A stretch of 64,000 nt of DNA from Candidatus Omnitrophota bacterium (GCA_041651035.1 JBAZKC010000001.1:387244-451243), one strand, 5' to 3'; counted from the first letter of the stretch, positions 12,267 to 45,312 are shown. Translations and numbers: made by a program. Notes: a model not told the origin generated them from the letters alone.

Positions 12267-12281
12267 CTTGGGGAGTTTCTC

Positions 12282-16198: not shown

Positions 16199-16334
16199 AT
16201 TTTATGGCCCCTGTTTTCTTAAAAAGCGATGATTAATTGAATATAACACAAAAATTCAGTTTCGGCAAGTAAGTAAAGCACTCTGCCATTTAAGAATTTT
16301 CGGCACACTGAGGCTGGATTTATCAGTAAAATCC

Positions 16335-17642: not shown

Positions 17643-17644
17643 AT

Positions 17645-18541: not shown

Positions 18542-18569
18542 AATCTAATCCGGATATTATCTTAATATA

Positions 18570-19655: not shown

Positions 19656-19666
19656 ATTTTATTTCT

Positions 19667-22625: not shown

Positions 22626-22644
22626 AACCTATATATACATCCTA

Positions 22645-23817
22645 TTATAATTTCTCGCACCTGCTACAACCAGGCATATTTATTTCTTTCTTTAAAATAC
22701 GCCTGAAACCCCTGAATTTTTCATTATTCCAAATGCCCTGTATCGTATCCTGATGTATATTCCCCATGCTGACCATAAAACGCGCGCAGGGATAAACTTC
22801 TCCCCGCGGGGAAATCCTAATGACGTTCCAAGGGAAAAAGCATCTTCTTTGGCAATTAAAGCCATCCTCAGACCAAAGGCTTATTTCTTTTTCACTTAAA
22901 TCCGGTTTTAATAACAGTTTCACCTTTTTTCTATTCGCGTATTCTCTTATTTTGCCTAACTCTTCTGACAGGCTTTTTGGATATTTGTTACCGGGCTCAT
23001 AAGAATACGCCTGATACCCGCAGCTTACCTGCGGGAACATTCTTTTAAAATTATCTTCATAGGCGCTTAATTCTTCTTTTCTAAAAAACCTGATGAATTC
23101 TAAACTCATACAGTCAACTCTTAAATTATTTGCTATGTCAACAAGGCCAAGTAAATGTTTAATGTTTTCATCCAATATTACTGTATTTATTATCAGCCTT
23201 GGCCTGATCTTCGGCGGCTTTCCTGATAAATATCTAATATTACTGTAAACCTTTTCAAAAGTTCCTCTTCCTCTGGAAGAATCATGAATGTCTTTCGGCC
23301 CATCCAAAGAAAAGAATATATAATCTAATTTTAATCTAACCAGCTCGTCTGATATAGCTTCATTCAATAATGTCCCATTAGTAAATAATCCACATTTGAA
23401 ATTTCTCCCTTTTATAAGCCCTATGATATCTAACAAATCCTTTGCTAACAACGGCTCGCCTCCTGTCAGAAAAAAGGTTGGGTCATTTTTATCAACATAT
23501 CCCAGCAGCTTCCGCACATCACTTGATTTTAAATACTGCCCGCTATTAGCACTATTGTTGTTTATCGTAGATCTTAAATAACAGTACCCGCAAGAAAGAT
23601 TGCAATTATAATTTAAATCCAGGGTAATGTTGACAGGAAAGGGCGCGCGTCCTTTACTAAAAATATATAAAAATAAGAAGCCGGGCAGATGGGATAAGAA
23701 TTGTTTTAATGAGACCGCTTTAATAATATATATGTTATAAAATTGCCGGTTTATCTTCTTAAGTATATCTTTAAATAAATTCATAATCCCCCGTAAAGGA
23801 ATAACTTGTCTTCCCAA
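22645..23817 (-). CDS. radical SAM protein with SPASM domain
   Basis: 390 aa. CNLSCGYC (CxxxCxxC), GGEP motif, C-terminal Cys cluster (CQRRCFFPW...YPCARF...GCSRCEKL). Confidence 0.7.
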   Translation of the reverse strand: MGRQVIPLRGIMNLFKDILKKINRQFYNIYIIKAVSLKQFLSHLPGFLFLYIFSKGRAPFPVNITLDLNYNCNLSCGYCYLRSTINNNSANSGQYLKSSDVRKLLGYVDKNDPTFFLTGGEPLLAKDLLDIIGLIKGRNFKCGLFTNGTLLNEAISDELVRLKLDYIFFSLDGPKDIHDSSRGRGTFEKVYSNIRYLSGKPPKIRPRLIINTVILDENIKHLLGLVDIANNLRVDCMSLEFIRFFRKEELSAYEDNFKRMFPQVSCGYQAYSYEPGNKYPKSLSEELGKIREYANRKKVKLLLKPDLSEKEISLWSEDGFNCQRRCFFPWNVIRISPRGEVYPCARFMVSMGNIHQDTIQGIWNNEKFRGFRRILKKEINMPGCSRCEKL

Positions 23818-25742
23818 TAATTCCGCCTTAACGTAGTATGTATAATATTTTCTGCCTTCTCGTCGTAATCTCTGGCGAGCTTACTATCGCCTTTTAAAGC
23901 GTATATCTGGCTAAGATATTTATAAGCCAGAGGAGAATCGGGATTTATCTTAATCGCCTTAGTAAGAAGCATTTCGGCCTTACCCAGTTCATTCTTATAT
24001 AAGGATATCCGTGCCAGGTCGACAATCCCTTGCACAAAACCCGGATTTGAATTTATTGCCTCGCTTATTTCGGATTCGGATTTTTGTAAATCTCCTTTTG
24101 AAATATAAATTATACCCGAGTAGTAATGAAACAAAGCCGGGCTAAAATTCTCTACTTTGGCTTCTCTAAGTTCTTTTCTTGCCAGATCGGGAACCTTATT
24201 CTTTAGGAAGCCTAAACTTTTGTTTAGATGGCCCATGCTTTCGTAGAATGGAGATTTTCGATCATTATAAGATAATATTGACTCTAAAGTTTTTGCATAA
24301 AACGGATCAAGTTCTAATGACCTTATCCATGTCTTTTCGGCCGCTTTCTTGAAGCCGGACCTATAAATACCTTCTGCCAGATAATTATGGATTCTTACTT
24401 CATTTGGGCATATGTCCAAGGCGACATAGCATCGCGCCATTGCTTTTTTGTAATCAGGGTATATATTCATCCTCTCTAAAGACCCCTTTAAAAACTTATC
24501 CTGGTATCCTTTATTTAGATACAGCTCTATGAAATAAGCATCATAATCAACAAAAGTAGCAAAACGATGGGGTGGATAGGTTGTTTTATCAGGCAAAGCA
24601 AAGACTATCGCCTCACAAAAAATAATAGTAAGTATTATATATATAAGATACCTAATAACATACCTTGATTTTTTAGCTAATTCATGAAACATCATTGCTG
24701 TTAAGATAATCGCGGGCATGAAACTTAATTTTGACCAATATGCTTCACCCCAGATAAAACTATTTGTCTTAATGAAAGTAAAGATCATTATCTGTGTTCC
24801 GGCAAGTAAAAATAATAATCTCACAAAATATCCTTTTAGGTTCTTAAGAGAATAAATTATGCCTATAAATAAAACTACCCCGCTTAAGGGGCTCATCAAA
24901 GGCGCATCACAATTTACCGTCATACGGTAATCTAAATGTAATATCCGGCTCACGGGTTCTATCAAAAAGAAATTGACTCCCGTAAAAGTCGGAAGGAAAC
25001 TCAATTGGACATACCCGGGCTGAGTAAAGTATTCCAATGAGGTCCCTTTGGTTTTTATAAGGATTAAATGGCTGGCTACAAAAATTATAAATACAAAATA
25101 ACTGAAAGCGATCTCTTTGCTGGATGCCCATTTTCTGTATGGAGGCGCGGTTAAAAGGAATAAGTAGAATACGGGGACAAAAACAACCGCTTGCTCCTGG
25201 GCCATATATGATAGGATCCAAATCAAACCCAAAAACCAAAGCATGCTTCTTTTATAATTAACGCCTTCCCAAAAAACATAGATAGATAATGTAGACAGCA
25301 ACAAAATGATACCGGTATTATCAGCTATGCCGGAATAGGCAATATGGAATTGATTAAATGCCAGGAGGATTAAAGCGTATATGGCAATGCTTCTTGAAGA
25401 TTTCGCGAGGAATTTATAGATAAGGATCAGATTTAGAAAACCCAATACAACAAAAAAGAATCTTATGCCCAACGCGTTTTCTCCGAATAATTTCATACCT
25501 AACAAAACAGGTAAATCGGTAAGAATAATGTGGTTATCAAGTACATTCTCTAAAGGAAAAAAGAACCTCTCTAAAGATAAAGAGATACTTTTAACAAAAA
25601 TTACATGCGCCTCTTCTACCCCCAAAATAGGTAAATATGTCAACGAAAATGACAGCCTAAGAAAAAAACCAATAAACAAAAGTAACGCGATACCGACTTT
25701 AATTTTATTATCGAACAATCTCTTCATAATATCAAATCTCAT
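23781..25742 (-). CDS. GT-C-fold (PMT/ArnT-like, GT39/GT83-type) membrane glycosyltransferase with C-terminal TPR repeats
   Basis: 653 aa. About 12 TM helices in the first ~400 aa, then four to five TPR-like repeats (AKTLESILSY..., ALFHYYSGIIYISKGDLQKSE..., AYKYLSQIYALKGDSKLARDY). Confidence 0.5.
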   Translation of the reverse strand: MRFDIMKRLFDNKIKVGIALLLFIGFFLRLSFSLTYLPILGVEEAHVIFVKSISLSLERFFFPLENVLDNHIILTDLPVLLGMKLFGENALGIRFFFVVLGFLNLILIYKFLAKSSRSIAIYALILLAFNQFHIAYSGIADNTGIILLLSTLSIYVFWEGVNYKRSMLWFLGLIWILSYMAQEQAVVFVPVFYLFLLTAPPYRKWASSKEIAFSYFVFIIFVASHLILIKTKGTSLEYFTQPGYVQLSFLPTFTGVNFFLIEPVSRILHLDYRMTVNCDAPLMSPLSGVVLFIGIIYSLKNLKGYFVRLLFLLAGTQIMIFTFIKTNSFIWGEAYWSKLSFMPAIILTAMMFHELAKKSRYVIRYLIYIILTIIFCEAIVFALPDKTTYPPHRFATFVDYDAYFIELYLNKGYQDKFLKGSLERMNIYPDYKKAMARCYVALDICPNEVRIHNYLAEGIYRSGFKKAAEKTWIRSLELDPFYAKTLESILSYNDRKSPFYESMGHLNKSLGFLKNKVPDLARKELREAKVENFSPALFHYYSGIIYISKGDLQKSESEISEAINSNPGFVQGIVDLARISLYKNELGKAEMLLTKAIKINPDSPLAYKYLSQIYALKGDSKLARDYDEKAENIIHTTLRRNYWEDKLFLYGGL

Positions 25743-27646
25743 TGTAAGCCGCTGGCCCCAAAGATTGGATCATTGCCCAACCAATGGGCCACGGAAGGGA
25801 CCCCTTTTAATCCTAAAGTTAATTCTAAGATAGTCCAAACATGCGAGATCCCTACATAGACGAGGATCAAAGTAAATATTATTTTTGCGGCTGTTCTTCT
25901 TTCCGAAAGCCATTTAAAAACTGCTATTATTAAAGCTGGGGTAATATAAACCAAATGATAGGTCTGCCGAAAGTCAATCCAGGTAAATGCGATCGCTCCA
26001 ATTATAAACCATAGCGAAAATATTGTTTCGTTCCTGTAAGAATTAAATATAAATCTTAAGTAATATACTACCGCGTATAAAGAAAGCAAAAATAAGGGCC
26101 AGCCAAGATAGCCGCCATAAGTTAGCCATAGTTTGCTAACAGATAAATATCCTGTATAGCCAAATTCATTTATATGCAAAACCCTATCAAGAAAATGGTA
26201 AAGGAAATGATCGATAATAAACATTCTTGCGTCTATCATTAATCCGTAGATCCAATAAGCCAATACGCCAAGGATAAATCCAATAAAAATATAATTACCG
26301 AACACACTTTTTAGTATGGGCCTCTTTTCATTATTTTTTACAGCTAATATAAAATCCCTCGCCAAGATAGCCATTATTAAAATAAGGGTTTTATGATCGC
26401 TTACGGCGCACAAAAAACCAGAAATAAATAACGGCAGCCTCATCTCCTTTTTTTTGCCGGCATTATTATTGTAACTATAGTATAAATACGCGGCAGCGAT
26501 GATCGCGAAACTGGTTATTGCTTCGTAATCTGTAATAGAAAGAGATAATAATATCTCTGGGATAGCCAGATAAAGCAGGCTTCCAAATATACTGAGAAAA
26601 TAAGAACCGGTGATTTGCAAAATAAAAATTAATAAAACAATAACTGTTAAAGCGGTAAAAAGGAACTGCGAACTTCTCGTACTAACCAGGTATGGAGATT
26701 GCCAAAACCGCGCGTAGCAATTCTCTGTTATGTTCCAGATTTCCGCTTCTCTAACCCATTTATAATCAATGCCATCTTTTTGTCCAGAGAGCCCTTCTGT
26801 ATAATCGGTTCTGGCCTTTGGGGGAATAAATCTTGCTTTGCCAAGCGTAACTTCTCCGGTAATCTCTGAATTAAGCCTGGCCTTATCACCCTCTAAGCCT
26901 ATAATACTGTATTCCTTGGTCCTGTTATCGGAGAATAAAAGAGTTATTTTTTCTCCTACAAAAGGTTTCCGTCTTTTTATACCGTTAACCTCAAGTGAAG
27001 CATCATAATAATATTTAACTCCTTCCAGATTATCGAAGAATAAAATTGTATTCGCGGCGCAGAAAGCAGGTAACAGGGGATGGGAAAAATTATAAGTGGT
27101 CTTTCTGTCAGTAAGCATGCCCGGGGTAAGGTAATGAACCAAGCTATAGGCAGTGCCTTGTAAGTCCAAATCGCTGTCCGCGTATGGTTGAGCGGCAACA
27201 TAAGTACTAAACATATAAGCGGCGGTATAGGTTAAACAAAAGAGGGGGATCAATATTTTATAGTTTTTGATCTGCGCCTGGTGAAAGCCGCTAAATAGTA
27301 ACCCGATATTAGTAATAACTGCTAAGAAAATAAACAACCCCCAAGAATTTACCGTTAGATTAAAAATTAGATGGCCCAATAACCCAACCAGGGATATAAC
27401 AATTGAAAAACATAAAATAATCAATATATAAGATACCGTGTCATAAAATTTTTGTTTTAAGATACCCGCCCACGCGACTCCGGGGAGAACGAACAAGATA
27501 AGATTGGATACTATTGATAAGAAATAATTATCTAGGCGGATAAAATAATGTAGATAGTATATAAAAAAGCACGCATTAAATAGAAAAATATATATATATT
27601 TCCTCATTCTTATAATCTTATCCCGAGCCTTTCTTTCAAACTCCAT
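25739..27646 (-). CDS. large polytopic membrane protein with central soluble insertion (possible GT-C)
   Basis: 635 aa, more than 12 predicted TM helices, about 130 aa hydrophilic insertion containing DSDLDLQGTAY. No family-specific motif recognised. Confidence 0.4.
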   Translation of the reverse strand: MEFERKARDKIIRMRKYIYIFLFNACFFIYYLHYFIRLDNYFLSIVSNLILFVLPGVAWAGILKQKFYDTVSYILIILCFSIVISLVGLLGHLIFNLTVNSWGLFIFLAVITNIGLLFSGFHQAQIKNYKILIPLFCLTYTAAYMFSTYVAAQPYADSDLDLQGTAYSLVHYLTPGMLTDRKTTYNFSHPLLPAFCAANTILFFDNLEGVKYYYDASLEVNGIKRRKPFVGEKITLLFSDNRTKEYSIIGLEGDKARLNSEITGEVTLGKARFIPPKARTDYTEGLSGQKDGIDYKWVREAEIWNITENCYARFWQSPYLVSTRSSQFLFTALTVIVLLIFILQITGSYFLSIFGSLLYLAIPEILLSLSITDYEAITSFAIIAAAYLYYSYNNNAGKKKEMRLPLFISGFLCAVSDHKTLILIMAILARDFILAVKNNEKRPILKSVFGNYIFIGFILGVLAYWIYGLMIDARMFIIDHFLYHFLDRVLHINEFGYTGYLSVSKLWLTYGGYLGWPLFLLSLYAVVYYLRFIFNSYRNETIFSLWFIIGAIAFTWIDFRQTYHLVYITPALIIAVFKWLSERRTAAKIIFTLILVYVGISHVWTILELTLGLKGVPSVAHWLGNDPIFGASGLQ

Positions 27647-28590
27647 AACGAATTCTTAATTATCGAATGTCCAAACGAGAGGCGCCATTTCCTGTGGCAA
27701 TTGCTGCAAAGAGTTAAATTGCCATACTCCCTGTTTACCAATTTGCTTCTTAAATTAACCATCCTTTGGCCATTCCATAAGCTAGAAAGGTCAGGATTAT
27801 CCTTAAGGTCTCCAATTATATAAGAACCGTTAAAATCATCGCAGCAACCTGTTACTAAACCGCTCGACAAGACTGTAATCTCAGCCCAAGGCACTAAGCA
27901 ATGAATATGGTTATCTTGGTTTTTATGCCATTTATCTCTGGAATCAATCCCCGGCCAGCCGTGTAAGGGAACCCCATTAATATCATCGCAACCCAGCTTT
28001 CTCATTTTCTTAACAAATCTTTTCTTCTCCCCCTTATCATAACCAAGGTCTATAAAATTTATACTTACATACGGCTTAGTTTTCTTAAGAGAACGCCTTA
28101 AGCCCACAAAATAGCCGATATTATCCAGGACACTATTATAAGACGCCCCCTGTTTTATTTCTTCATATTTTTCTTTAACAACGCCATCAAAAGAGATAAC
28201 TATTACATTAAGCCCGGACAGGATAAGCTTTTTTGAATTATCTTCATCGAGCAAAGTACCATTTGTGAAAATCCTTGTCCATATGCCGGCCCTCCCTGCG
28301 TAAGAAATCATTTCTGGCAATTGTGGATGTAAAAGCGGCTCGCCCACCAGATATAGTTCTAGCTGTCTTATAAATCCACTATTAGAATCAATGATTTTTT
28401 TATAAAGCTCAAGAGGCATATAGCTTCTTTCTCTAACCATGGTTTTATTGCAACACATAACACATCCAAGATTACAGGAATTAGTAGGTTCAATCATTAC
28501 CACCAAAGGACGGTAATGGCATAAGGTTTTCTTTCTAAAATAGCTAACTACGAATTTTATACTATCAATTATTCCCAGCCAAAAATTCAT
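27610..28590 (-). CDS. radical SAM protein with SPASM domain
   Basis: 326 aa. CNLGCVMCC (CxxxCxxC), VGEP motif, C-terminal CLVPW...GCCDDF...CSNCHRKW cysteine array. Confidence 0.7.
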   Translation of the reverse strand: MNFWLGIIDSIKFVVSYFRKKTLCHYRPLVVMIEPTNSCNLGCVMCCNKTMVRERSYMPLELYKKIIDSNSGFIRQLELYLVGEPLLHPQLPEMISYAGRAGIWTRIFTNGTLLDEDNSKKLILSGLNVIVISFDGVVKEKYEEIKQGASYNSVLDNIGYFVGLRRSLKKTKPYVSINFIDLGYDKGEKKRFVKKMRKLGCDDINGVPLHGWPGIDSRDKWHKNQDNHIHCLVPWAEITVLSSGLVTGCCDDFNGSYIIGDLKDNPDLSSLWNGQRMVNLRSKLVNREYGNLTLCSNCHRKWRLSFGHSIIKNSLWSLKERLGIRL

Positions 28591-30051
28591 TTATTTTCCC
28601 CGCAAGATTAATCTTGTTATTCCAAGTAATTCTAAAAATACAGTTGGATTGTATAAATAAAAAAACAGGTAATTAAAGATATGCTTTACTACAAAAATGG
28701 GCCTCAATAGAAAACTCGCATAAAAGATACTCTGTGCCTTTTCTAACTCCCCGTTGCTCATGGCACTTAGATTAATCAGGGGTTTATCATAATGATACAT
28801 TTTTGAAAATGGAATGCCCTTGAGCTGGTCCTTAAATAAGCTGTATGCCGAGGAACCGGGAAAAGGTATGAAGTAAGCAACCTGTATTACGTCCGGGGAA
28901 ATGATTTTTGCAAAATTAATACTTTCCAGGAGATCATCTTTTGTTTCGGTGGGGCTGCCGACTATAAAAAGACCGACCGTAGCTATGCCTACAGAACGCG
29001 TTCTGCCTATAACATGGCGGACTCTCTTTAACCAAAGACCGCTGTTTCTTGTTTTAGAGAGAATCTCCAGAACCCTCTTTGAGCCTGTCTCGATTCCAAA
29101 CCTAAGCAATAAACACCCTGCTTTCTTCATTAGCTTAAGAAGCGCGAAATCTACCTCATCAATCCTGGCATGAGCAATCCATTTTATTTTAAGCTGCCTT
29201 GACTCAATCTCATCACATATCGCCTTCACATGGTCTCTTGAGCTGGTGAAATTGTCGTCATCAAACGTGATTACATTTGCGCCAAAATCTGATAAATGCT
29301 CCATTTCATCCACCACGTTTGTCGCCGACCTCCCGCGGAACCTATTGCCGTAACTTTCCCTCATTATTTGGGAACAGAAAATACAATGATGCGGGCAGCC
29401 TCGGCTGCTTAACATATGCCCCCATACCACTTTTTTATTCAATTTTAAAGGATAGACAAAATTATACGCCTCTAAAGAACCGGGGGCGTATATAGGGAAC
29501 GGCAGGCTATCCGGATCAGATACTTCCATTAATTTTGTTTTGAAAATATCCTGATTATAAAAGTTTTTTAATTCCTTGATATCAATGCCGTCATTTATTT
29601 TTCTAATGATAGAGGCGATCTCTATTTCTGCCTCACCTCCTAATAGAATATCAAATAAGGGATTGAAATCCTTATACTTTTCGATATCGGCAGAAATTTC
29701 CTGCCCTACGCCAAATATAAGGATACTCTTACCAATCGTGCCTTCTCTTAATATCCTGCAGAATCTCAAACTCTGCTCCACATCCAATGTTGAAATGGAA
29801 ATTACTACTATATCCGGAGCCCAGGTTTTTATATTTTTAACAATATCCTCAAAAGACAGCCTGGTTATCCTTTGGTCTATCAGTTTGACATCACAGAAAT
29901 CTTCTTTTTTCAAGAATGCTTCAATATATTTGAGGATATAAGGGGGCCTGAAGCCGATAGGATGATAACTATATTCAAAAACAGGGGGTTTTAGACGCAA
30001 AAGCGCAACTTTGCCCATTTTTCTTTTATTTTCGGCTATATTCATTATCAT
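28591..30051 (-). CDS. B12-binding radical SAM protein (HpnJ-like position)
   Basis: 486 aa. N-terminal cobalamin-binding Rossmann region, radical SAM core SSRGCPHHCIFCSQ. Last gene of the GT2/YdjC/B12-rSAM trio. Confidence 0.7.
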   Translation of the reverse strand: MIMNIAENKRKMGKVALLRLKPPVFEYSYHPIGFRPPYILKYIEAFLKKEDFCDVKLIDQRITRLSFEDIVKNIKTWAPDIVVISISTLDVEQSLRFCRILREGTIGKSILIFGVGQEISADIEKYKDFNPLFDILLGGEAEIEIASIIRKINDGIDIKELKNFYNQDIFKTKLMEVSDPDSLPFPIYAPGSLEAYNFVYPLKLNKKVVWGHMLSSRGCPHHCIFCSQIMRESYGNRFRGRSATNVVDEMEHLSDFGANVITFDDDNFTSSRDHVKAICDEIESRQLKIKWIAHARIDEVDFALLKLMKKAGCLLLRFGIETGSKRVLEILSKTRNSGLWLKRVRHVIGRTRSVGIATVGLFIVGSPTETKDDLLESINFAKIISPDVIQVAYFIPFPGSSAYSLFKDQLKGIPFSKMYHYDKPLINLSAMSNGELEKAQSIFYASFLLRPIFVVKHIFNYLFFYLYNPTVFLELLGITRLILRGK

Positions 30052-30070
30052 CTTGTAAGAAATAAAATAT

Positions 30071-30919
30071 TCAAATAAGCGACCTGCGGTTACACAAACT
30101 TATCCCGCCTTCTTGAAGTAATCTTTTTGTTTCCCGGGAAGTAAACAGCCGCGTCTCGTTCTCCCAGTGATAATTCCAGTGTGGATATGCTAGATGGGCT
30201 TGACGGGTACCCGGATGAGAGATCAACTCAAAAGAATTAAAAGGCAGCCCCCTGATTCTTCTTATGATCCCCGAAAAGACTGCCGGATTCAAATTGCCGC
30301 TATTATATATCCCCAGGGCGGAATCAATACAGAAAAGACCATTCCTTTTTATTTTCTTTCTTGCCTTATAACTGAGCAAATTCAAAATCAAGACTTTCAA
30401 GCCTTTTTTATTAAGAATTCTTAGAGGCGCGCAATATTCGGAGGGAATGCGGATAAAATTTATTCTATATTTATTCGCCAATTTAATAATTAAATCGATG
30501 ATGCCGGGCAGCAAATGAATATGGCAATGGCTGTCAATATGGGAGATCTTTATGCCGGAGTGGATCATTTTGGATATCTGCGCTTCAAGCTCTTTGTTTA
30601 TTTCGTAAATTTTTATTTTACCGGTACAAAATAACCCCAAGAAAGAAAACCAATTCCGGGGGAAATAGCCGCCTTTGTCTACTAAGGTAGGTATTTCTTT
30701 CTTATTAAGCAGCGCTTTTTCTTCTGTAAGAACAAAATGAATTCCTGTTTCAAAACCGCTGTTTTTCTCCAGGAGTTTTACCGCTGCCTCAAACTCAGAA
30801 CCATTCGCTACTAAAGACACGCTATTGACTATTCCTGCGTTAATACAATTAATTATACCCTCGTTAATTCCTCTTGATAGCCCGAAATCATCCGCATTAA
30901 TGACTATCTTTTTTGCCAT
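30071..30919 (-). CDS. ChbG/YdjC/HpnK-family carbohydrate deacetylase
   Basis: 282 aa. Starts KIVINADDFGLSRGINEGI...G.VNSVSLVANG with metal-binding His cluster (ISHIDSHCHIH), diagnostic of the YdjC family. Confidence 0.7.
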   Translation of the reverse strand: MAKKIVINADDFGLSRGINEGIINCINAGIVNSVSLVANGSEFEAAVKLLEKNSGFETGIHFVLTEEKALLNKKEIPTLVDKGGYFPRNWFSFLGLFCTGKIKIYEINKELEAQISKMIHSGIKISHIDSHCHIHLLPGIIDLIIKLANKYRINFIRIPSEYCAPLRILNKKGLKVLILNLLSYKARKKIKRNGLFCIDSALGIYNSGNLNPAVFSGIIRRIRGLPFNSFELISHPGTRQAHLAYPHWNYHWENETRLFTSRETKRLLQEGGISLCNRRSLI

Positions 30920-31640
30920 TAGTATTCTTTCTTAACTCGGGATAAGATTTGACCATCTCTAGGATCATCCTGAAAATAGTCCCCACTATTCTTTCAGGGG
31001 AAGCAAACTTAGAACAACCGCATCTTCGTGACATGCTTTTAACTTTAAGCTCTAAGATCCTAAAACCGTTATTTCTCATCTTAAGCACTAACTCCGTGTC
31101 AATAAAGGGGCCGTCGGCATTAAGTTTAATATCATTAATAATACTGCGCCTGAATATTTTCATTGCACAATTAATATCATGCAACTTTATCTTAAACAGC
31201 GATCTTATCATTAAATTAAATATGCCGGTATAAAACCGCCTTAAAAATGATTCTCGCCTTCCCATCCTGTTGCCGATTACCATATCGGCTTCGTTTCTAT
31301 CAATAATAGCCTTGCCTGGCATCAAGACATTGATATCTACTGGCAAATCCGCGTCTGTATAAAAAATTATATCTTTTTTTGCGGAGGCAAAGCCTGTCTT
31401 TAAAGCCCTGCCTATACCTATATTTTTCTTTAGATGTATCGCTCTTAGAAACGGATAAGTTTTAGTTAATTCGTCCAGTAACAAAGACGACCCGTCATTA
31501 CTGCCATCATCAACAACAATAAGTTCGGAATCTAGATTTACTGATTTCGAAAAATCATATACTATTTTTACAAGGTCCCCCGCCAGCTCTTTTTCGTTAA
31601 ACAGAGGGACAACTATAGAAACTGAAGATTGATTAGCCAT
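30897..31640 (-). CDS. family 2 glycosyltransferase (soluble, DPM1/HpnI-like)
   Basis: 247 aa GT-A fold (VSIVVPLFNEKELA...LIVVDDGSNDGS...YTDADLP). Its 3' end overlaps the YdjC gene. Confidence 0.65.
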   Translation of the reverse strand: MANQSSVSIVVPLFNEKELAGDLVKIVYDFSKSVNLDSELIVVDDGSNDGSSLLLDELTKTYPFLRAIHLKKNIGIGRALKTGFASAKKDIIFYTDADLPVDINVLMPGKAIIDRNEADMVIGNRMGRRESFLRRFYTGIFNLMIRSLFKIKLHDINCAMKIFRRSIINDIKLNADGPFIDTELVLKMRNNGFRILELKVKSMSRRCGCSKFASPERIVGTIFRMILEMVKSYPELRKNTNGKKDSH

Positions 31641-32916
31641 GTTTTAAAGACAAAACCTGTTTAATGGATTTTGATATATGCTCGATATCTCTTGCATCAA
31701 GATAATGGTTATTGGGTAATTCTATAAGGTTGTCTTTTATCGCAATGGAATTTGGGTAATCCGAATTAAATTCGGCAAAAGCGCTAAGGCCTGAACAATC
31801 AGACATCTCACTCCTTTTTGAAGTATCAATCCCCTTTCTCAATAACTGTTTCCTAAAAGAACATTTATCTTCAACCCTGACCTTGTAATATAAATAATTG
31901 GATTTATGTCTCTTGGAAGGTAATTTAATCCCGTTAAGACCACTGAGGTTATTAGTTAAAAGAAGCGAATTCTCATATCTTTTACTATCAAGAAAATCAT
32001 TTTTCTTAAAATGTTCCATCCCGACTGCTGCCTGTATATTCAACAGCTTCAAAGGCAGGGTATCAAAATTTGTGATATTCTCCGGAGGCAAAACTTCTTT
32101 TTTCTTAAGATCCATTATGTCTATGCCAAAAATATCCAGAAGCCTGATTAAGGGGAAAACAAAAAAAGTGAATAAAAAAGTGGCGGTTATTAAATACCCG
32201 GCGCTAAATTCAAAGATATTTTTAAACACGCTCTTTAATTGAGGGGCGCCACTCTCATCAATATATTCTTTGAGTGTCTCGTATATTTTCCTATCATTTG
32301 TGGTTATCATGCCTCCGCCAAAACAGGGCATATTCTTACCTAAGCTAAAACTAAAAATGCCCGCATCTCCCATTGTCCCGGTTTTTTTTCCTTTATATTC
32401 TGAGCCTAAAGAATGGGCACAGTCTTCAATCACCTTTATATTGTTTTCTTTGCCCAGAATCAGGATTTCATCCATTTCTGCCGGCTGGCCGAACATATGC
32501 GTAACTATGATGGCTTTTGTTTTCTGGTTAATTTTATTCTTTATCAATACAGGATCAATATTATAAGTATCCGGGTCTATGTCTGCGAAAACCGGGGTCA
32601 AGCCGGATTTTATAATAACTTCCGCTATAATATGAAAATTATACGCGGGGAGTATAACCTCATCTCCTTTTTCAAGCCCCAAGGATTTAAGCACCGCGAT
32701 TAGCCCTAATCTTGCCTGCGATATGCCTATGGCAAAACTGCTTCCAGTATATTTGGAGAATTCTTCCTCAAATCTTTTTATCTGAGGCCCGTTGATAATC
32801 TGTTTTGCCAATACGCAATCAAGCAAGGCCTTAAATGATTCTCCTCTTAAGTTAACTATATGCCTTGGGTATGCTCTCATCATGCCTGTTAATAGGTCAA
32901 ACGAATAAATATACAA
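31633..32916 (-). CDS. DegT/DnrJ/EryC1/StrS-family PLP-dependent sugar aminotransferase (second copy, with ~120 aa insertion)
   Basis: 427 aa. Blocks DEVILPAYNF, VTHMFGQPAEM, KVIEDCAHSLGSEYKGKKTGTMGDAGIFSFSLGKN. Contains an extra hydrophobic segment (LITATFLFTFFVFPLIRLL) absent from the first copy. Confidence 0.75.
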   Translation of the reverse strand: MYIYSFDLLTGMMRAYPRHIVNLRGESFKALLDCVLAKQIINGPQIKRFEEEFSKYTGSSFAIGISQARLGLIAVLKSLGLEKGDEVILPAYNFHIIAEVIIKSGLTPVFADIDPDTYNIDPVLIKNKINQKTKAIIVTHMFGQPAEMDEILILGKENNIKVIEDCAHSLGSEYKGKKTGTMGDAGIFSFSLGKNMPCFGGGMITTNDRKIYETLKEYIDESGAPQLKSVFKNIFEFSAGYLITATFLFTFFVFPLIRLLDIFGIDIMDLKKKEVLPPENITNFDTLPLKLLNIQAAVGMEHFKKNDFLDSKRYENSLLLTNNLSGLNGIKLPSKRHKSNYLYYKVRVEDKCSFRKQLLRKGIDTSKRSEMSDCSGLSAFAEFNSDYPNSIAIKDNLIELPNNHYLDARDIEHISKSIKQVLSLKHG

Positions 32917-34657
32917 TTAAAATAAAAACTGAAGCCGCGCTTAATAAACTTCCAATTATAAATGCCGAAGGCAGATAATAAAAGACAATTCTGTATCTTC
33001 CGGCGGGCAGCTCAGCCGAAATCAAACCATCGTAAGGCTGTACTTCGCTTTTAACTCCTTTTATTTTCCATCCTTTGTAAAAATTTTGGTTTATTACTAC
33101 CCTATCCGGCATTAGGATATTAACGTTGATTTCTATGGAATTTGGGCTAAAGCGCGACATAGCTACCTGCCCGTTATTATTTAATAGATACGCCTCGCCC
33201 TTATAATCCTGGTCGTTGTAAATCCTGACTTTACCTTTTTTTATCCCTACTACCTCGTAAGAGTTAATTACCCCGCTGTTATTAAGAAACGCCGCATACA
33301 TAGAACTCCTGCTCTCCCCGGGAAACAAATTAAAATCCCTGTATCTTTGTTTAAATTCCAGGTTTCTTTTAATTTCAGGCGGTCTTATGGTAAACGTTTG
33401 TTTCCATAAAGGGTAATTCACCAGAAAGAAATCATAAAACAATGCCCCTATCAAGATGATAATCAAATACCTGAGCTTTTTTTTCTCGCATATATCTTCA
33501 AGTTTTGATAATCCAAGCCCGGAAAAAATAGCTGCACAAAATACGAAACCTAAAATAAATCTGGAGGGGGCGTGAAAAGAATCATAAAGCGGCAGCTTAG
33601 TTAATAAGCCCCAGAGATTATAATAAGCGCTTTTGCCCAGGCTTATCCACAGCGACAAAATGCCCATTAGCCATAAAGGCCAATATTGCTTAAAATAAAA
33701 AATTAAACCGGCTATGCCCAAAATCAAAGGTACGATTCCTATATATGCCCCATACTCATGCCAGCCCACAGGGAATTCTTTATCTGCGATTATTACACTG
33801 CGCTCGGGATAGGCCAATTTTGTTTTTTGATAAAGTTGGGCTTGGCCTCTTGAAAGAAAGATATCGGGTAGAAAAGAGATTGGTATAAATTCTCCGGAAG
33901 CAAAAGCCTTACGGGGATTATCTTTTATAAATTCCAGCGCGGGAATCAGTTTAATAGAACACAGCAAGAATGTTCCTACAAATATAACTGCCATCGTCTT
34001 CAAAGGAGCCAGGCTTCTTTGCCGCAAAGATAGAAGAAAACAATAGCTAAGAAACAGTATAATCGCTATGCTAAAAATATGAACGCCGCTGCCAAATAAC
34101 ATTAAAGAAAGGGAAAATATACAGCCTATAACATATTTGAATCTTTTAAAGCTAAGAAAATAAAATAAAAATAGCCATGGTATAAAAGCCATGGCTAACC
34201 ATTCACCATGCCCTTCAGCGAAATGTAATGTGAAAACAGAACTTAACATATACACTAAAGGGGGCAAATAAGCAGAATACCGGCAGGGCAATATGTGCCG
34301 GAAAAGCAAGAAAATACCGAACATCCCGATAAACAAATGAAGAATAAATTCTAGCTTTAAACCGATTACCGGGCCGAAAATAAATACCAAAATATAAAAT
34401 GGCGAAAGGAATAAAGAGTGCGGATGGGCAAGTGAAATGTTGCCTCCGTTGCTATAATTGTTCCATAAAGGAAACTGATGATACTTTAATATCGACTCTC
34501 GGGGTGTGGCATTCCAAAAAGTAAACTGATCCCAATCCATCTGGCCCCAATAATGGATATTCTGCAATATCACTAATCCAACCAATAGGCTAATTATAAA
34601 AAAGACCACGAATGGTATAAAAAATAATTCATAAGAATATTTGCGCTTGATAGACAT
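32897..34657 (-). CDS. large polytopic membrane protein, YfhO-like putative GT-C (paralog of 19667..21454)
   Basis: 586 aa. Shares with 19667..21454 the N-terminal YHQFPLWNNYSNGGN block and the C-terminal NQNFYKGWKI...DGLISAEL block. Confidence 0.45.
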   Translation of the reverse strand: MSIKRKYSYELFFIPFVVFFIISLLVGLVILQNIHYWGQMDWDQFTFWNATPRESILKYHQFPLWNNYSNGGNISLAHPHSLFLSPFYILVFIFGPVIGLKLEFILHLFIGMFGIFLLFRHILPCRYSAYLPPLVYMLSSVFTLHFAEGHGEWLAMAFIPWLFLFYFLSFKRFKYVIGCIFSLSLMLFGSGVHIFSIAIILFLSYCFLLSLRQRSLAPLKTMAVIFVGTFLLCSIKLIPALEFIKDNPRKAFASGEFIPISFLPDIFLSRGQAQLYQKTKLAYPERSVIIADKEFPVGWHEYGAYIGIVPLILGIAGLIFYFKQYWPLWLMGILSLWISLGKSAYYNLWGLLTKLPLYDSFHAPSRFILGFVFCAAIFSGLGLSKLEDICEKKKLRYLIIILIGALFYDFFLVNYPLWKQTFTIRPPEIKRNLEFKQRYRDFNLFPGESRSSMYAAFLNNSGVINSYEVVGIKKGKVRIYNDQDYKGEAYLLNNNGQVAMSRFSPNSIEINVNILMPDRVVINQNFYKGWKIKGVKSEVQPYDGLISAELPAGRYRIVFYYLPSAFIIGSLLSAASVFILIVYLFV

Positions 34658-34687: not shown

Positions 34688-36037
34688 TTAATTAGCCTGG
34701 GTTAATAAGCCTGAATAGACTTTTTCTAATTCCCGGGCGTTTCCTTCAATCGACGTGACGGCCGGGATATTTTTTATTAATTTTTCTATATAATCAGGAC
34801 TGTCAATTATTAATTTCATCTTATCATATAGGTCATTACAGTCCCCGGGCTTAAATAATAACCCATTAACACCATGGTTGACTAATTCAGGGATGCCCCC
34901 GACCTCAGACGCTATTACTGGTATACCCGCTAAAAAAGCTTCTTGTATTACCAATGGAGAATTCTCCAGCCAGATAGAAGGCACGATAAGCGTGTCTATA
35001 TTTAAGAAGATATCGGCAATATTATCATTGTGGAACCCGCCCAGGAACTTTATGTTTCTGTTTTGCGCTATTTTCTTGATATAGCCGGGATAATATTCAA
35101 AACCTGCGTATGGATAAGACTTGCCATATATTTTTAGTTCCGCCCTTTTGTCTTTAATTTTATTAAACGCCTCTATCATTATATGCACCCCTTTATGGGG
35201 CAGTAGCGTGCCTATAAATCCAAATCTTACCTTGCCATCCAATGTCATTTTTTCACGGTTATTAAATAAGCGTTTATTAAAACCGTAATTTAGCAATAGC
35301 GCCTTAGCAGAAGATACCATACCCGATTCAATAAATTTTGTTAGCAGAAGTCGCGAGGGAGCAATAAAAATATCTACTTTATCACACATATATTTTATAT
35401 GGGTTGCCCTGCCTTTTATTTTTCCCTCTAAAACTCCGGAGGGAAGAGTTTTTTTGGCAATATTAAAGTATAATTTCTTACAGAGAGAGGCCAGCCCTGG
35501 AATTATTCTATAACATTTCTGGTATAGCTTTTTAATATTCCTCCTTAAACTTAAATAGTAAATTTGGCAATCAACGCAATCCACATAATTGTGATTATTG
35601 CAAATAGCCATGCTCCTTCTTAATAATTGCGCCTGGGGACAAATAAGCCAATAATCATGCAGAGTATACACAACAGGTATCCCCCTGGACTTAATTTCTC
35701 TGACAATTGTAGTAGACAAAGAAAGCAGATGCTGGATATGTACAATATCCGGCTTGGTTTTATCTAAAATTTCCGCGAATCTCTTAGTTATTATCTCATT
35801 GTTATAAGTCATCTCGTAAGAATCGCAGAGGCTGAAAGTGTTATTTATGGCGTATATCTCTAACCCGTTAATATTACTACGGACAACTTCGTATTCCTTT
35901 TTATGCGGGTCATTGATCCTATGGAAAACAAACACCTTGTATTTTTTCGCTAATTCCATAGAAAGATTGTAGGTATACACTTCCGAACCGCCTACATTAT
36001 AAGGAGGAAAATTATGGATCACCTGCAATATCTTCAT
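34688..36037 (-). CDS. family 4 glycosyltransferase (GT-B, retaining)
   Basis: 449 aa. N-terminal MKILQVIHNFPPYNVGGSE, C-terminal EAFLAGIPVIASEVGGIPELV..GVNGLLFKPGD (E-x7-E-type GT4 motif). Confidence 0.7.
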   Translation of the reverse strand: MKILQVIHNFPPYNVGGSEVYTYNLSMELAKKYKVFVFHRINDPHKKEYEVVRSNINGLEIYAINNTFSLCDSYEMTYNNEIITKRFAEILDKTKPDIVHIQHLLSLSTTIVREIKSRGIPVVYTLHDYWLICPQAQLLRRSMAICNNHNYVDCVDCQIYYLSLRRNIKKLYQKCYRIIPGLASLCKKLYFNIAKKTLPSGVLEGKIKGRATHIKYMCDKVDIFIAPSRLLLTKFIESGMVSSAKALLLNYGFNKRLFNNREKMTLDGKVRFGFIGTLLPHKGVHIMIEAFNKIKDKRAELKIYGKSYPYAGFEYYPGYIKKIAQNRNIKFLGGFHNDNIADIFLNIDTLIVPSIWLENSPLVIQEAFLAGIPVIASEVGGIPELVNHGVNGLLFKPGDCNDLYDKMKLIIDSPDYIEKLIKNIPAVTSIEGNARELEKVYSGLLTQAN

Positions 36038-37260
36038 ATTATTTCAGCGTATGCCTTAAGTGTTTGTTCTACCATACACTCTCTTGTAAAATATCTTTCA
36101 ACATGTTTACGCGCTGCCTTGCCCATTTCTATTCTGCGTACTTTATCCTTTAGGAGTTGCACTATTGCCATAGCCAATGACTCCTGGTCCTCCGGAGGGA
36201 CAAGCATGCCTGTAGCGCCATCTTGCACGGTTTCAGGTACTCCACCTACCCCGCAACAGACAACCGGCTTACCATATGACATTGCCTCCAGGTATACAAA
36301 CCCGCAAGATTCATAAAGTGAAGGCGCTACGAACAGATCACAGGAACTATAATAAAAATCTAATTTGTGCGGCGGGACATAGTCTAAGAAACTGACTCGA
36401 TCTAGATATTGTTCGGGTAGAAAACGCGTAAGCACGGATTTATATGATATATTTTCTGATACATTAAACAACGCATTCCGATTATTAATAAGTGTGTCTC
36501 TGCCAATAATTATAAATTTTGCCGCGGGAATCTCTTGTAACACCAGGGGAATGGCTTTTATAAGTATGTGGATCCCCTTTCTTTTTTCTAACCGGCCGAC
36601 AAAAAGCACAAGCGGAGAATCAGGTTGTGGCGGGGGCAGAGAATTAATCTCGGGAAGGGGAATGCCCAATGGTATGATTTTAATACCGCCCGGATGGATC
36701 CCCGCTTCATCTGTAATAAGTTCTGCGTGCGCATGGGTAGAACACGTGATCAAATTACTATTTTTAACAGTGGCGTCTTCCAACCAACAACTTAGTTTAC
36801 GGTCGAATGTCACCGGCCACCCACAGAATTTAACCACCTCAGAATATTGAGTGTGCAATCTTGTAACGATCGGCGCCTTCCTGAAAAACCCATGGATGAA
36901 GGTTTCTGCTGATAAATTAGGGCCCTCTATTACGTCAATAGGATATCGCTTAGCTAGTTCATCTATTTTCTTATGTACCCGCTTGCTGTATTCTAACCGC
37001 AAAGCGAATTCCCTTAAGCCTCCTTTATAAGGGAATATCACCGGATGAACAACACGAGAAACATGCACTTTACTATCCATATATTCCCTTTCCCCGCTTA
37101 AGCCCTGGCAAATCACAAAAACTTTATGCCCTTTATCCGCTAATCCATGCGCCAGATGGTAAGTATATGTTCCTATACCGCCCCATCCAGTCTCAGGGGG
37201 ATATTCACGGGAAATAAGGCAGATGTTCAAAGCTGTTTTCATATTAATTTTGTTTGGCAC
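36034..37260 (-). CDS. family 4 glycosyltransferase
   Basis: 408 aa. YPPETGWGGIGTYTYHLAHGLADKGH...EAMSYGKPVVCCGVGGVPETV..GATGMLVPPED. Confidence 0.75.
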   Translation of the reverse strand: MPNKINMKTALNICLISREYPPETGWGGIGTYTYHLAHGLADKGHKVFVICQGLSGEREYMDSKVHVSRVVHPVIFPYKGGLREFALRLEYSKRVHKKIDELAKRYPIDVIEGPNLSAETFIHGFFRKAPIVTRLHTQYSEVVKFCGWPVTFDRKLSCWLEDATVKNSNLITCSTHAHAELITDEAGIHPGGIKIIPLGIPLPEINSLPPPQPDSPLVLFVGRLEKRKGIHILIKAIPLVLQEIPAAKFIIIGRDTLINNRNALFNVSENISYKSVLTRFLPEQYLDRVSFLDYVPPHKLDFYYSSCDLFVAPSLYESCGFVYLEAMSYGKPVVCCGVGGVPETVQDGATGMLVPPEDQESLAMAIVQLLKDKVRRIEMGKAARKHVERYFTRECMVEQTLKAYAEII

Positions 37261-37300
37261 TTTCTAGAAAACTTAAGTACTGAATACCTCAGAGTGATCA

Positions 37301-38263
37301 CTATCTTAGCTCATCCATATAACAGTTGCTGGCACAATTTAGGCATTTATCTGATGCGCGTTTTAAGGCCCCCCCGGATTTATTCCATATCGCCCCGAAA
37401 GATTCCCCATTAAACAAACTACCGATCCTGAATTCTTTAAAATTACCGCATGCGTAAACTTCACCGTCGGGTTCTACGAGAAAGGCCTTTCTCTTTCTAA
37501 AAGCGCAATCGGCAACGCGCCTGCCGGTCCTAAGCCAGGTAAGGATAAATTTTGCATAATGCGGATCGAGCGCTTTATTTTGTAACAAATCTTCCAGAGA
37601 TAGTATGAGCTTGATTTTTTCATTCTGGTCCATTTCAAAGTTTTCTCTTAAGCCCAAGCTCTTCACGCCAATATCAGAAATTGCTGCTAGGGTAAAGTTA
37701 ATACCGACACCTTTTAGTGCCGCGTATTTTCTAACGTCTTCAATCGCCTGATAATTCAGTTTACTTATGGTCATATTAAGGCCTAAAGAAAAAAAGGGAT
37801 ATAACAACATCAATTCTTTTAGTTCCTTTATAGTTTTTTCAATTCCATTAAATATGCCTGAAACTCCTCTTACGCGCTCATGAGCTTCTCCCAGGCCATC
37901 CAAAGAAACAGTTACTGTCAGCTTGACATTGGTAGGCAGGAGAACAGCTAAAATACGTTCTATGTTATCTACCACCCGGCCTGTATTAATGCCATTGGTG
38001 GGGATATCTACCCGGCAAAGCCGACGGCAATTATTTATGAGCACCTTTACGATATCTACCAAATCCTGCCGCATAGTCGGCTCACCGCCTGTTATATTAA
38101 TTATCTCTATATTCCTCCTCAATAGCGCATCTGCGAATATTTTCTCTAGCTGCCATACAGATAACTCAGGATGGTTCCTTTGTTTTGTCCATGCGGCGCA
38201 CATTATACATTTAGAATCGCATCGATAACTTGTAAATAAGACTGCGATCTTGGGGACTGGCAC
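37301..38263 (-). CDS. radical SAM protein with SPASM/twitch-type C-terminal Cys motifs
   Basis: 320 aa. CDSKCIMCAAW (CxxxCxxC), GGEP motif, C-terminal CAFRK...YACGNF...CLNCASNCY. Confidence 0.65.
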   Translation of the reverse strand: MPVPKIAVLFTSYRCDSKCIMCAAWTKQRNHPELSVWQLEKIFADALLRRNIEIINITGGEPTMRQDLVDIVKVLINNCRRLCRVDIPTNGINTGRVVDNIERILAVLLPTNVKLTVTVSLDGLGEAHERVRGVSGIFNGIEKTIKELKELMLLYPFFSLGLNMTISKLNYQAIEDVRKYAALKGVGINFTLAAISDIGVKSLGLRENFEMDQNEKIKLILSLEDLLQNKALDPHYAKFILTWLRTGRRVADCAFRKRKAFLVEPDGEVYACGNFKEFRIGSLFNGESFGAIWNKSGGALKRASDKCLNCASNCYMDELR

Positions 38264-38265
38264 GG

Positions 38266-42229: not shown

Positions 42230-42244
42230 AATATTTATTCCTGT

Positions 42245-45284: not shown

Positions 45285-45312
45285 TAAACTATTTAAAAAG
45301 ATAAGAAAATAA

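Follow-up and report, generated by a model that had tools for sequence, protein, structure and literature searches.

A putative lipid-linked aminosugar cassette beside a B12-binding radical SAM gene in an Omnitrophota surface-glycan island

We consider here three adjacent genes in a 64,000-nucleotide stretch of a Candidatus Omnitrophota genome (GCA_041651035.1 JBAZKC010000001.1:387244-451243; below, the window), which encode a family 2 glycosyltransferase (GT2), a YdjC-family de-N-acetylase, and B12a, a radical S-adenosylmethionine (SAM) enzyme with a B12-binding domain. Several described systems are close to this arrangement. In FlmF2–NaxD–FlmK of Francisella and Acinetobacter, LgmA–LgmC–LgmB of Bordetella, and ArnC–ArnD–ArnT, an ArnC-like GT2, a de-N-acylase, and a GT-C glycosyltransferase of the ArnT/PMT_2 type are encoded together. 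The Arn pathway is the formyl analogue of N-acetylhexosamine (HexNAc) loading and deacetylation, by ArnC and ArnD. In the three-component Gtr/CsbB–GtcA–YfhO systems, a GtrB/CsbB-like GT2 makes a C55-phosphate-linked sugar, which is moved by a small flippase, and a GT-C enzyme (GtrII, YfhO) transfers the sugar to a surface polymer. NaxD, a member of the YdjC superfamily, deacetylates undecaprenyl-phosphate-GalNAc before its transfer to lipid A (PMC11279074); in Bordetella, lgmA-C are needed for the addition of glucosamine, which LgmB adds. Finally, HpnI, HpnK, and HpnJ of hopanoid synthesis, which lead to bacteriohopanetetrol glucosamine and cyclitol ether, belong to the same three superfamilies as the window trio and share its formal logic, in which HexNAc is placed on a lipid and then de-N-acetylated; the field calls HpnI, HpnJ, and HpnK by the models TIGR03472, TIGR03471, and TIGR03473 (PMC12324291). 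A preliminary description of the window had read the trio as this hopanoid chemistry applied to another acceptor. We find it on balance probable that the GT2 and YdjC genes are instead an Arn/Lgm/NaxD-like cassette inserted in a conserved radical-enzyme module of a surface-glycan island, so that the trio would be a juxtaposition, in one long minus-strand operon, of a donor cassette and that module.

The three genes are intact and co-directional on the minus strand. The GT2 gene (30897..31640) encodes 247 amino acids (PF00535, 86.7 bits) and a predicted polyprenyl-phosphate HexNAc/aminosugar synthase of the ArnC/DPMS/GtrB/PpgS type. The YdjC gene (30071..30919) encodes 282 amino acids (PF04794, 208.9 bits), a predicted cytoplasmic enzyme with a NaxD/LgmC-like role, and the B12a gene (28591..30051) encodes 486 amino acids (PF02310, 36.0 bits; PF04055, 64.2 bits). 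The reading frames of GT2 and YdjC share 23 nucleotides, and 19 nucleotides separate YdjC from B12a; upstream, the aminotransferase gene DegT1 overlaps the GT2 start by 8 nucleotides, and downstream the SPASM2 gene abuts the B12a stop. A scan for consensus promoters and terminators gave no excess over shuffled sequences and lends no evidence to internal transcription units. Open reading frames and Pfam matches thus bear out the positions, families, and gene order given in the preliminary description, as well as its remark that hopanoid context is absent: of the 56 open reading frames of at least 150 amino acids in the window, about 50, including all of those from about 850 to about 62,200, were scanned with Pfam and revealed no squalene-hopene cyclase (SHC) or hpn gene. 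The HpnI-HpnK-HpnJ order that it pointed to stands as the order of pathway steps but not as synteny, because true hpn operons, which we retrieved from Mycetohabitans, Caballeronia, and Methylobacterium plasmid records, run hpnI-hpnJ-hpnK and then continue into an LPG_synthase_TM gene.

The trio is not conserved as a unit. In a related Omnitrophota locus (L002/L003; other related loci are numbered likewise), orthologs of Mem586 (51% identity), DegT1 (57%), B12a (54%), SPASM2 (46%), Mem635 (49%), and GTC653 (53%) form a colinear block that contains no GT2 or YdjC gene between DegT1 and B12a. The window and this locus also have common flanks, comprising a DUF3108-like gene, two ATP-grasp genes, a KamA-like radical SAM gene, and EF-G. 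Because the related block lacks both genes at this point, the GT2 and YdjC genes are read as two genes that were inserted into a conserved module. When 185,579 species genomes were scanned, relatives of B12a turned up in 26 loci, nearly all from Omnitrophota. Around the B12a ortholog in 24 loci, a DegT gene is adjacent in 15 and within ±10 kb in 18, and another B12-binding radical SAM gene is adjacent in 13 and within ±10 kb in 23, but a YdjC gene is adjacent in none and within ±10 kb in only two; neighbors were classed by BLASTP with a limited query set, so that these counts are underestimates. DegT genes are 5.8% of the genes in B12a-ortholog loci, and B12-binding radical SAM genes are 104 of 378 called genes (28%, by greedy open reading frame calls) in the related loci, with up to about eight per 20 kb. 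At 28%, about half of all genes will neighbor a B12-binding radical SAM gene, and the adjacency of YdjC to such a gene is therefore not above chance. The conserved partner of B12a is the DegT aminotransferase, not the deacetylase.

The module itself recurs in other forms, and small ArnC-like GT2s are regularly part of it. In L023 and L024 the arrangement is Mem586 – B12a – DegT1 – B12b – GT2 – SPASM, where B12b corresponds to the other B12-binding radical SAM enzyme of the window, and orthologs of B12b (50–61% identity) adjoin small ArnC-like GT2 genes in L019, L020, L023, L024, L030, and L031. The expansion of B12-domain radical SAM enzymes, accompanied by SPASM radical SAM enzymes and GT-C-like membrane proteins (L002, L007-L031), is almost exclusive to Omnitrophota. 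Taxonomic labels of metagenome-assembled genomes may be wrong, and two contigs labeled 'Nanoarchaeum sp.' (L015, PNOQ01000030.1) and 'Candidatus Helarchaeota' (L023, SUPR01000117.1) carry the same bacterial cassette; that of L023 is essentially identical to that of L024, labeled 'uncultured bacterium'. Both are probably mis-binned Omnitrophota contigs.

Specific kinship with HpnI, HpnK, and HpnJ fails in all three equivalog tests, and by wide margins. The NCBIfam cut-offs are 310 bits for HpnI, 232.6 for HpnK, and 577.6 for HpnJ, and the Mycetohabitans proteins that served as positive controls score 456, 407.7, and 843.9 bits, respectively. The window GT2 has no match to the HpnI model at E ≤ 1e-3 and no BLASTP match to HpnI of Mycetohabitans, Caballeronia, or Methylobacterium; HpnI is a GT2 of about 390–410 amino acids, whereas the window protein has 247 and no transmembrane (TM) segment, and belongs to a different GT2 subfamily. 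The window YdjC scores 159.3 bits on the HpnK model, which is its best curated model, yet this is 68% of the cut-off. B12a scores 146.4 bits on the HpnJ model, 25% of the cut-off and level with its score on BchE (146.1 bits). Direct comparison by BLASTP is similar: the window YdjC is 25.7% identical to true HpnK (100 bits, versus 108 bits to Bacillus ChbG), and B12a is 29–31% identical to true HpnJ over 60–70% of its length (107–112 bits, versus 131 bits to BchE). True orthologs from alpha- and betaproteobacteria, by the same method, share 64% identity for HpnJ, 49% for HpnK, and 39–42% for HpnI. The preliminary description had named, among the signs that would tell against its reading, a GT2/YdjC pair that lacks specific similarity to HpnI and HpnK beyond the family level, and the window pair is of that kind. 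Moreover, the HpnJ score of B12a is of the size that other B12-binding radical SAM enzymes reach: 147.9 bits for B12b (about 27% identical to B12a, as judged from the match of each to the L002 ortholog of the other), 125–186 bits for seven enzymes of related loci (six paralogs and the L002 ortholog of B12a), and 111 bits for true BchE. Judged by these sequence scores, the resemblance of B12a to HpnJ is generic, a background value for the B12-binding radical SAM paralogs of these loci.

These results bear directly on the possibility that the trio copies HpnI/HpnK/HpnJ chemistry on a non-hopanoid lipid, with B12a contracting a hexosamine ring to give an aminocyclitol cap. Several observations are in keeping with it. 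Of the NCBIfam models, two tie for the top place with B12a, and HpnJ, matched over nearly its full length, is one of them; in a neighbor-joining tree the true HpnJ proteins, although a separate clade, are the nearest characterized neighbors of the B12a clade. HpnK is the best curated model for the deacetylase, although true HpnK falls outside the clade that contains the window YdjC. The best Foldseek E-value of the B12a model is to OxsB, a cobalamin-dependent radical SAM enzyme that contracts a sugar ring. A GT2–YdjC pair followed by a B12-binding radical SAM gene is also found in L005, L011, and L012, and LPG_synthase_TM genes stand beside both true hpnIJK and several YdjC homologs. Against these stand the failed equivalog tests, the background level of the HpnJ score, the different GT2 subfamily, and the uninformative adjacency in loci so rich in B12-binding radical SAM genes. 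Further, 22 of the 24 B12a-ortholog loci have no YdjC gene within 10 kb, so B12a does not depend on a deacetylase, and the HpnJ reaction is itself only hypothesized (PMC13459092). On this evidence we regard the transfer of Hpn-like chemistry to another lipid as distinctly unlikely.

It is more improbable still, to the point of being scarcely credible, that the trio is a detached piece of a genuine hopanoid pathway whose shc and hpn genes lie elsewhere in the source genome. SHC is present at low frequency in Omnitrophota, which would allow for such a case, but HpnI and HpnJ domains are reported solely from genomes that also encode SHC and HpnH (PMC12324291), and nothing in the window reaches the thresholds. 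All three proteins fail TIGR03472, TIGR03473, and TIGR03471, and the genes sit within a polysaccharide locus, with which they are co-transcribed.

One feature common to hopanoid and non-hopanoid loci is the LPG_synthase_TM gene, similar to the MprF flippase domain and to HpnL, which lies beside true hpnIJK (L035, 11066..12127) and beside non-hopanoid GT2/YdjC cassettes (L004, L006, L001). Its recurrence may point to a flippase for lipid-linked aminosugars that both kinds of locus have in common.

The guess that the acceptor could be polyprenyl-linked fared better, since the best curated and solved matches of the GT2 are polyprenyl-phosphate glycosyltransferases. Its best NCBIfam match is ArnC (75.8 bits), followed by PgaC/IcaA, PgfS, AglJ, and PpgS (polyprenyl-phosphate-GalNAc synthase), with dolichyl-phosphate hexose transferase lower. 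The best sequence matches in the PDB are ArnC (9bhc, 8vxh, 9hwj), DPMS of Pyrococcus (5mlz), and GtrB (5ekp), and the protein aligns to the polyprenyl-phosphate glycosyltransferase subgroup over residues 6–224. It is below all named equivalog cut-offs of that subgroup (75.8 versus 529 bits for ArnC; 47 versus 370 bits for PpgS). Because its solved relatives and most of its curated families load a sugar onto polyprenyl phosphate, we read it as a predicted polyprenyl-phosphate glycosyltransferase of the ArnC/DPMS/GtrB type. The small GT2s of related cassettes are all likewise ArnC-like.

The deacetylase fits the same scheme. The YdjC protein matches its Pfam family at full length (profile positions 1–266 of 266), lacks a signal peptide and any TM segment, and preserves D10, D11, H61, H127, H131, H133, and H135, which are invariant or nearly so in 27 clade members. 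In a neighbor-joining tree it falls in a clade with homologs that adjoin GT2 and GT-C genes. Their contexts are PMT_2 – GT2 – YdjC – methyltransferase – B12-binding radical SAM in a planctomycete (Planctomycetota, L005), PMT_2 – GT2 – FemAB-like acyltransferase – LPG_synthase_TM – YdjC in L006, GT2 – GtrA – YdjC – GtrII in L033, YdjC – AsnB – GT2 – PMT_2 in L034, and GT2 … FemAB-like – YdjC in L004. A GT2 is thus adjoining or near in five of five, a GT-C of the PMT_2 or GtrII type in four, and GtrA or LPG_synthase_TM in three. Of 42 metagenomic loci of the YdjC clade with usable flanks, 14 have an ArnC-like GT2 nearby, 9 a GT-C, and 4 a GtrA, and BLASTP of the neighbors found a B12-binding radical SAM enzyme near in none and HpnJ in none. 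A Pfam census of the two genes to either side (148 neighbors) gave PilZ 12, GT4 11, GT2 9, LPG_synthase_TM 6, and PMT_2 6; the 25 commonest families include none of radical SAM type. A GT2–YdjC pair is found again in L011 and L012 (37–39% and 35% identity) and, its GT2 being larger, in L005, L033, and 14 of the 42 metagenomic loci; in the window a YdjC, an ArnC-like GT2, and an ArnT-like GT-C, all three gene types, are found in one operon. Loading of HexNAc on a polyprenyl carrier followed by its de-N-acetylation, as the preliminary description had supposed, is thus well supported by analogy and context.

An alternative is that YdjC deacetylates a soluble sugar or a finished or nascent polysaccharide, in the manner of ChbG or of a poly-N-acetylglucosamine deacetylase, rather than the lipid product of the GT2. 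ChbG-type YdjC enzymes act on soluble chitobiose, the BLASTP score to ChbG is slightly above that to HpnK, the commonest close neighbors of the metagenomic members are PilZ and GT4 genes, and GT4s are present in the window operon as well. However, the overlap of the GT2 and YdjC genes suggests translational coupling, the pairing with GT2s recurs in the related and metagenomic loci described above, flippase-like (GtrA, LPG_synthase_TM) and GT-C genes accompany YdjC, and a protein that has no signal peptide or TM segment could not reach an exported polymer. We therefore hold a soluble or polymeric substrate to be rather unlikely here. In one sub-clade (L098-L101 and similar metagenomic loci), an arrangement YdjC – PilZ – GT4 appears to recur, its order inferred from gene sizes, which suggests a polysaccharide system under cyclic di-GMP control with a YdjC deacetylase.

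Several points weigh against the account that we favor. The window GT2 has no predicted TM segment, whereas ArnC and GtrB have C-terminal TM helices. About half of the metagenomic YdjC-clade loci have no GT2 or GT-C nearby, as counted with a limited BLAST query set, and, given the recurrent PilZ and GT4 context, some members of the clade may have a polymer or a soluble sugar as the substrate of deacetylation. The likeness of the window YdjC to NaxD and LgmC is an analogy that rests on gene context, and all of our trees are neighbor-joining trees without bootstrap support. For the radical enzymes, AprD4 and BtrN are distant matches (E 1e-12 to 1e-17) and few sugar-acting radical SAM enzymes are in the PDB; on the NCBIfam model of AprD4 (NF033070), B12a scores only 76 bits against a cut-off of 500, over the radical SAM core only, and its likeness to that family is one of structure. 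Foldseek of B12a does not separate the non-methylating enzymes AprD4 and OxsB from the methylases TsrM, MgmA, CysS, and TokK.

The reaction of B12a has several candidates. The protein fits the definition of a B12-binding (class B) radical SAM enzyme, with PF02310 at 36.0 bits (cut-off 32.1), PF04055, and a CxxxCxxC motif (C219-x3-C223-x2-C226) that is invariant in 40 orthologs. Its best PDB match by phmmer is AprD4 (6e-17). An AlphaFold2 model (pLDDT 93) likewise has its best TM-score to AprD4 (0.72/0.76), and is also aligned by TsrM, MgmA, CysS, and TokK, of which TsrM and MgmA are within tenfold of the best E-value. AprD4 is a radical SAM 1,2-diol dehydratase, which has a B12-binding-type domain but is not known to use cobalamin. 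The candidate chemistry of B12a is either a radical dehydration or rearrangement of a sugar or its C-methylation; that a ring is contracted to a cyclitol is a minority possibility, and a quite improbable one.

Of these chemistries, C-methylation deserves separate mention, as a variant within the account that we favor. B12a would here be a class B methyltransferase of an unactivated sugar carbon, as are GenK and GenD1 in gentamicin biosynthesis, and its paralogs would make poly-C-methylated surface sugars. Most characterized B12-binding radical SAM enzymes are methylases, as are four of the structural neighbors of B12a, and for paralogs in the same loci the first or second match is a P-methyltransferase model (Sden_1168, 177–248 bits). 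Against this, neither the best full-length models of B12a (HpnJ and BchE) nor the structure that it matches best globally (AprD4) belong to methylating enzymes; methylase models such as PhpK, like the AprD4-type matches, cover only the radical SAM core (residues ~211–411), and the conserved pairing with an aminotransferase suggests a keto intermediate. We consider C-methylation quite possible, if short of probable.

For the pathway as a whole, we infer the substrates, the order of steps, the side of the membrane, the acceptor, and the reaction of B12a. At the cytoplasmic face, the GT2 would load polyprenyl phosphate with HexNAc taken from a nucleotide sugar, and YdjC would then strip the N-acetyl group from the polyprenyl-phosphate-HexNAc. 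The same succession of steps is known for undecaprenyl-phosphate-GalNAc (NaxD) and has been deduced for Lgm, and it parallels ArnC/ArnD. The resulting polyprenyl-phosphate-aminosugar would be flipped, and a GT-C enzyme would transfer the aminosugar outside the cytoplasm. The acceptor may be the glycan that a WecA-like enzyme primes, GT4s assemble, and Wzm/Wzt exports, or possibly a protein, because the GT-C enzyme GTC653 has a tetratricopeptide repeat (TPR) domain. B12a, DegT1, and SPASM2 would tailor the sugar with chemistry of the aminoglycoside type, in which oxidation or dehydration gives a ketone that is then transaminated, and/or by C-methylation. A wider proposal is that Omnitrophota use an expanded set of aminoglycoside-type enzymes (B12-domain radical SAM enzymes, BtrN-like SPASM dehydrogenases, and insertion-bearing DegT aminotransferases) to tailor polyprenyl-phosphate-linked envelope sugars at the membrane before GT-C transfer, which would be a kind of radical tailoring not described so far, the GT2 and YdjC supplying the hexosaminyl substrate in this genome; the units so installed could be deoxy, amino, C-methyl, or even carbocyclic (cyclitol). 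This we put forward as a speculation, more likely wrong than right by a good way.

The genes around the trio are of a kind with such a pathway. DegT1 (31633..32916, minus) is a pyridoxal phosphate (PLP)-dependent aminotransferase of the DegT/ArnB family (PF01041, 254 bits in two stretches) whose best PDB matches are a Gln:scyllo-inositol transaminase (7b0d), QdtB, BtrR (2c7t), and ArnB; its closest solved relatives thus act on inositol/2-deoxy-scyllo-inosose or on NDP-sugars. It carries a hydrophobic insertion of about 60 residues with a helix at about residues 236–262, which has a conserved [YF]P motif and scores as TM-like. A conserved insertion of about 50–65 residues after the PLP-lysine, with a hydrophobic helix, is found in all DegTs of these loci (31633..32916, 21426..22625, and the L001-L029 homologs), and may tether the enzyme to the membrane for acting on lipid-linked sugars. 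SPASM2 (27610..28590, minus; PF04055 and PF13186), a radical SAM/SPASM protein and possible BtrN-like sugar dehydrogenase, has its best PDB match in BtrN (4m7t, 2e-12), then in GDGT-MAS, BlsE, and DesII. The island contains no NDP-sugar 4,6-dehydratase or short-chain dehydrogenase/reductase, which makes radical oxidation or dehydration a plausible route to the keto sugar that a DegT enzyme needs.

Polytopic membrane proteins are numerous. Mem586 (32897..34657, minus; about 11 TM segments) is a GT-C glycosyltransferase of YfhO/PTPS_related-like type, as orthologs of 51% and 43% identity score above the PTPS_related and YfhO cut-offs of Pfam. GTC653 (23781..25742, minus), an ArnT/PMT-like GT-C with a C-terminal TPR (PF13231 PMT_2, 43.5 bits), is the candidate transferase for the lipid-linked aminosugar. 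Mem635 (25739..27646, minus; 635 amino acids, about 10 TM segments) is rare, with only six homologs in 5.8 billion proteins, all probably from Omnitrophota; the NCBI gene call is 144 residues shorter. The 13 top PDB matches of its AlphaFold2 model, which is of moderate quality (pLDDT 65), are all GT-C enzymes, although the matches are weak (E 5e-4, TM-score 0.39), and its assignment to the GT-C fold is tentative. Neither Mem635 nor Mem595, a GT-C-like protein that by their match to the same L002 protein would be a distant paralog of Mem586, finds a Pfam family even at relaxed thresholds.

Downstream of these genes is a second tailoring module (15491..23817, minus; Pfam, NCBIfam), made up of SPASM3, DegT2 (21426..22625), Mem595, SPASM4, GT2tm, B12b, and a DUF3108-like gene. 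GT2tm is an ArnC-like enzyme with C-terminal TM segments (134 bits on ArnC), and B12b scores 158.9 bits on BchE, somewhat above its HpnJ score. Upstream, glycan backbone genes (34688..46470, minus; Pfam, NCBIfam) encode four GT4s, SPASM1, a flavin oxidoreductase, a WecA-like initiating transferase (44337..45284), Wzm (42245..43039), and Wzt (39971..42229). Wzt has 752 amino acids, and the roughly 500 residues after its ATPase domain match no Pfam family, relaxed thresholds included. In other ABC-dependent O-antigen systems, the Wzt C terminus recognizes the chain-terminating cap; by analogy, the extension could be a novel glycan-cap-binding domain. At the end of the low-GC island are a GT2 gene (13425..14372, minus) and a Wzy_C/WaaL-like ligase gene (14395..15534, plus), both called by Pfam.

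The stretch from about 14000 to 36000 has a GC content of 0.36–0.40, versus 0.43–0.47 in its flanks; the flanks are conserved with L002 and the gene content differs, so that the stretch behaves as a hypervariable surface-glycan island. It holds two small ArnC-like GT2s, two DegT enzymes, two B12-binding radical SAM enzymes, four radical SAM/SPASM enzymes, and four large polytopic membrane proteins. The island is flanked, beside EF-G, by a conserved trio in the window (10087..13271) as in L002 (18064..21243): two D-Ala-D-Ala-ligase-like ATP-grasp genes and a radical SAM gene similar to KamA/lysine-2,3-aminomutase, which could form a beta-amino-acid ligation system. Two other roles for the radical enzymes were considered. 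The top NCBIfam matches of the SPASM enzymes include maturases, but a part in the making of ribosomally synthesized or other peptides was set aside, since the context contains nothing like a precursor and the neighbors are all glycan genes. Ladderane-type models match the B12-binding enzymes at 87–134 bits, but lipid modification is less likely given the tight pairing with DegT.

Against this background, the locus can be placed among the systems with which we began. With the Arn pathway it shares, in addition to the GT2, de-N-acylase, and GT-C genes, a DegT/ArnB-type aminotransferase. It differs from the Flm, NaxD, Lgm, and Arn loci in its GT2, which has no TM helices, in its three to four GT-C enzymes, one with a TPR domain, in its context, which is not a lipid A regulon but a glycan locus of the ABC-transporter kind, and in the radical SAM enzymes that are interleaved with the other genes; we know of no NaxD, Lgm, or Arn locus with radical SAM enzymes. 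The likeness to Gtr/CsbB–GtcA–YfhO lies in the YfhO matches of the Mem586 orthologs and in the YdjC homolog of the GT2–GtrA–YdjC–GtrII operon, but the classical systems transfer unmodified Glc or GlcNAc, whereas the window adds a deacetylase, aminotransferases, and radical SAM enzymes, and no GtrA gene was seen in it. From HpnI-HpnK-HpnJ the locus differs further in that B12a orthologs do not co-occur with YdjC. Finally, the solved structures nearest to B12a, SPASM2, and DegT1 are, respectively, AprD4, BtrN (a radical SAM dehydrogenase), and BtrR/BtrS (DegT-family aminotransferases), all tailoring enzymes for sugars or cyclitols in aminoglycoside pathways, a likeness that suggests oxygen-independent oxidation or dehydration and then transamination of a sugar or cyclitol. 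Here too there are differences: the similarity is remote, there is no 2-deoxy-scyllo-inosose synthase, and the context is a cell-envelope glycan locus, not a secondary-metabolite cluster.

In general, then, the hopanoid-like trio is mostly explained as an Arn/Lgm/NaxD-style cassette that lies next to a radical SAM gene in a place where such genes abound. The more unusual object is the island itself, for which we found no description in the literature searched: a radical-SAM-dense glycan island restricted to Omnitrophota, in which more than a quarter of the genes encode B12-domain radical SAM enzymes, tightly paired with insertion-bearing DegT enzymes, SPASM proteins, and several GT-C enzymes. 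If lipid-linked sugars are indeed the substrates of these enzymes, the chemistry known from bacterial envelope glycans would become broader, and the enzymes would offer enzymologists a large natural panel of sugar-acting B12-binding radical SAM enzymes. For these ultra-small, possibly host-dependent bacteria, the envelope is an interface that is relevant to their lifestyle.

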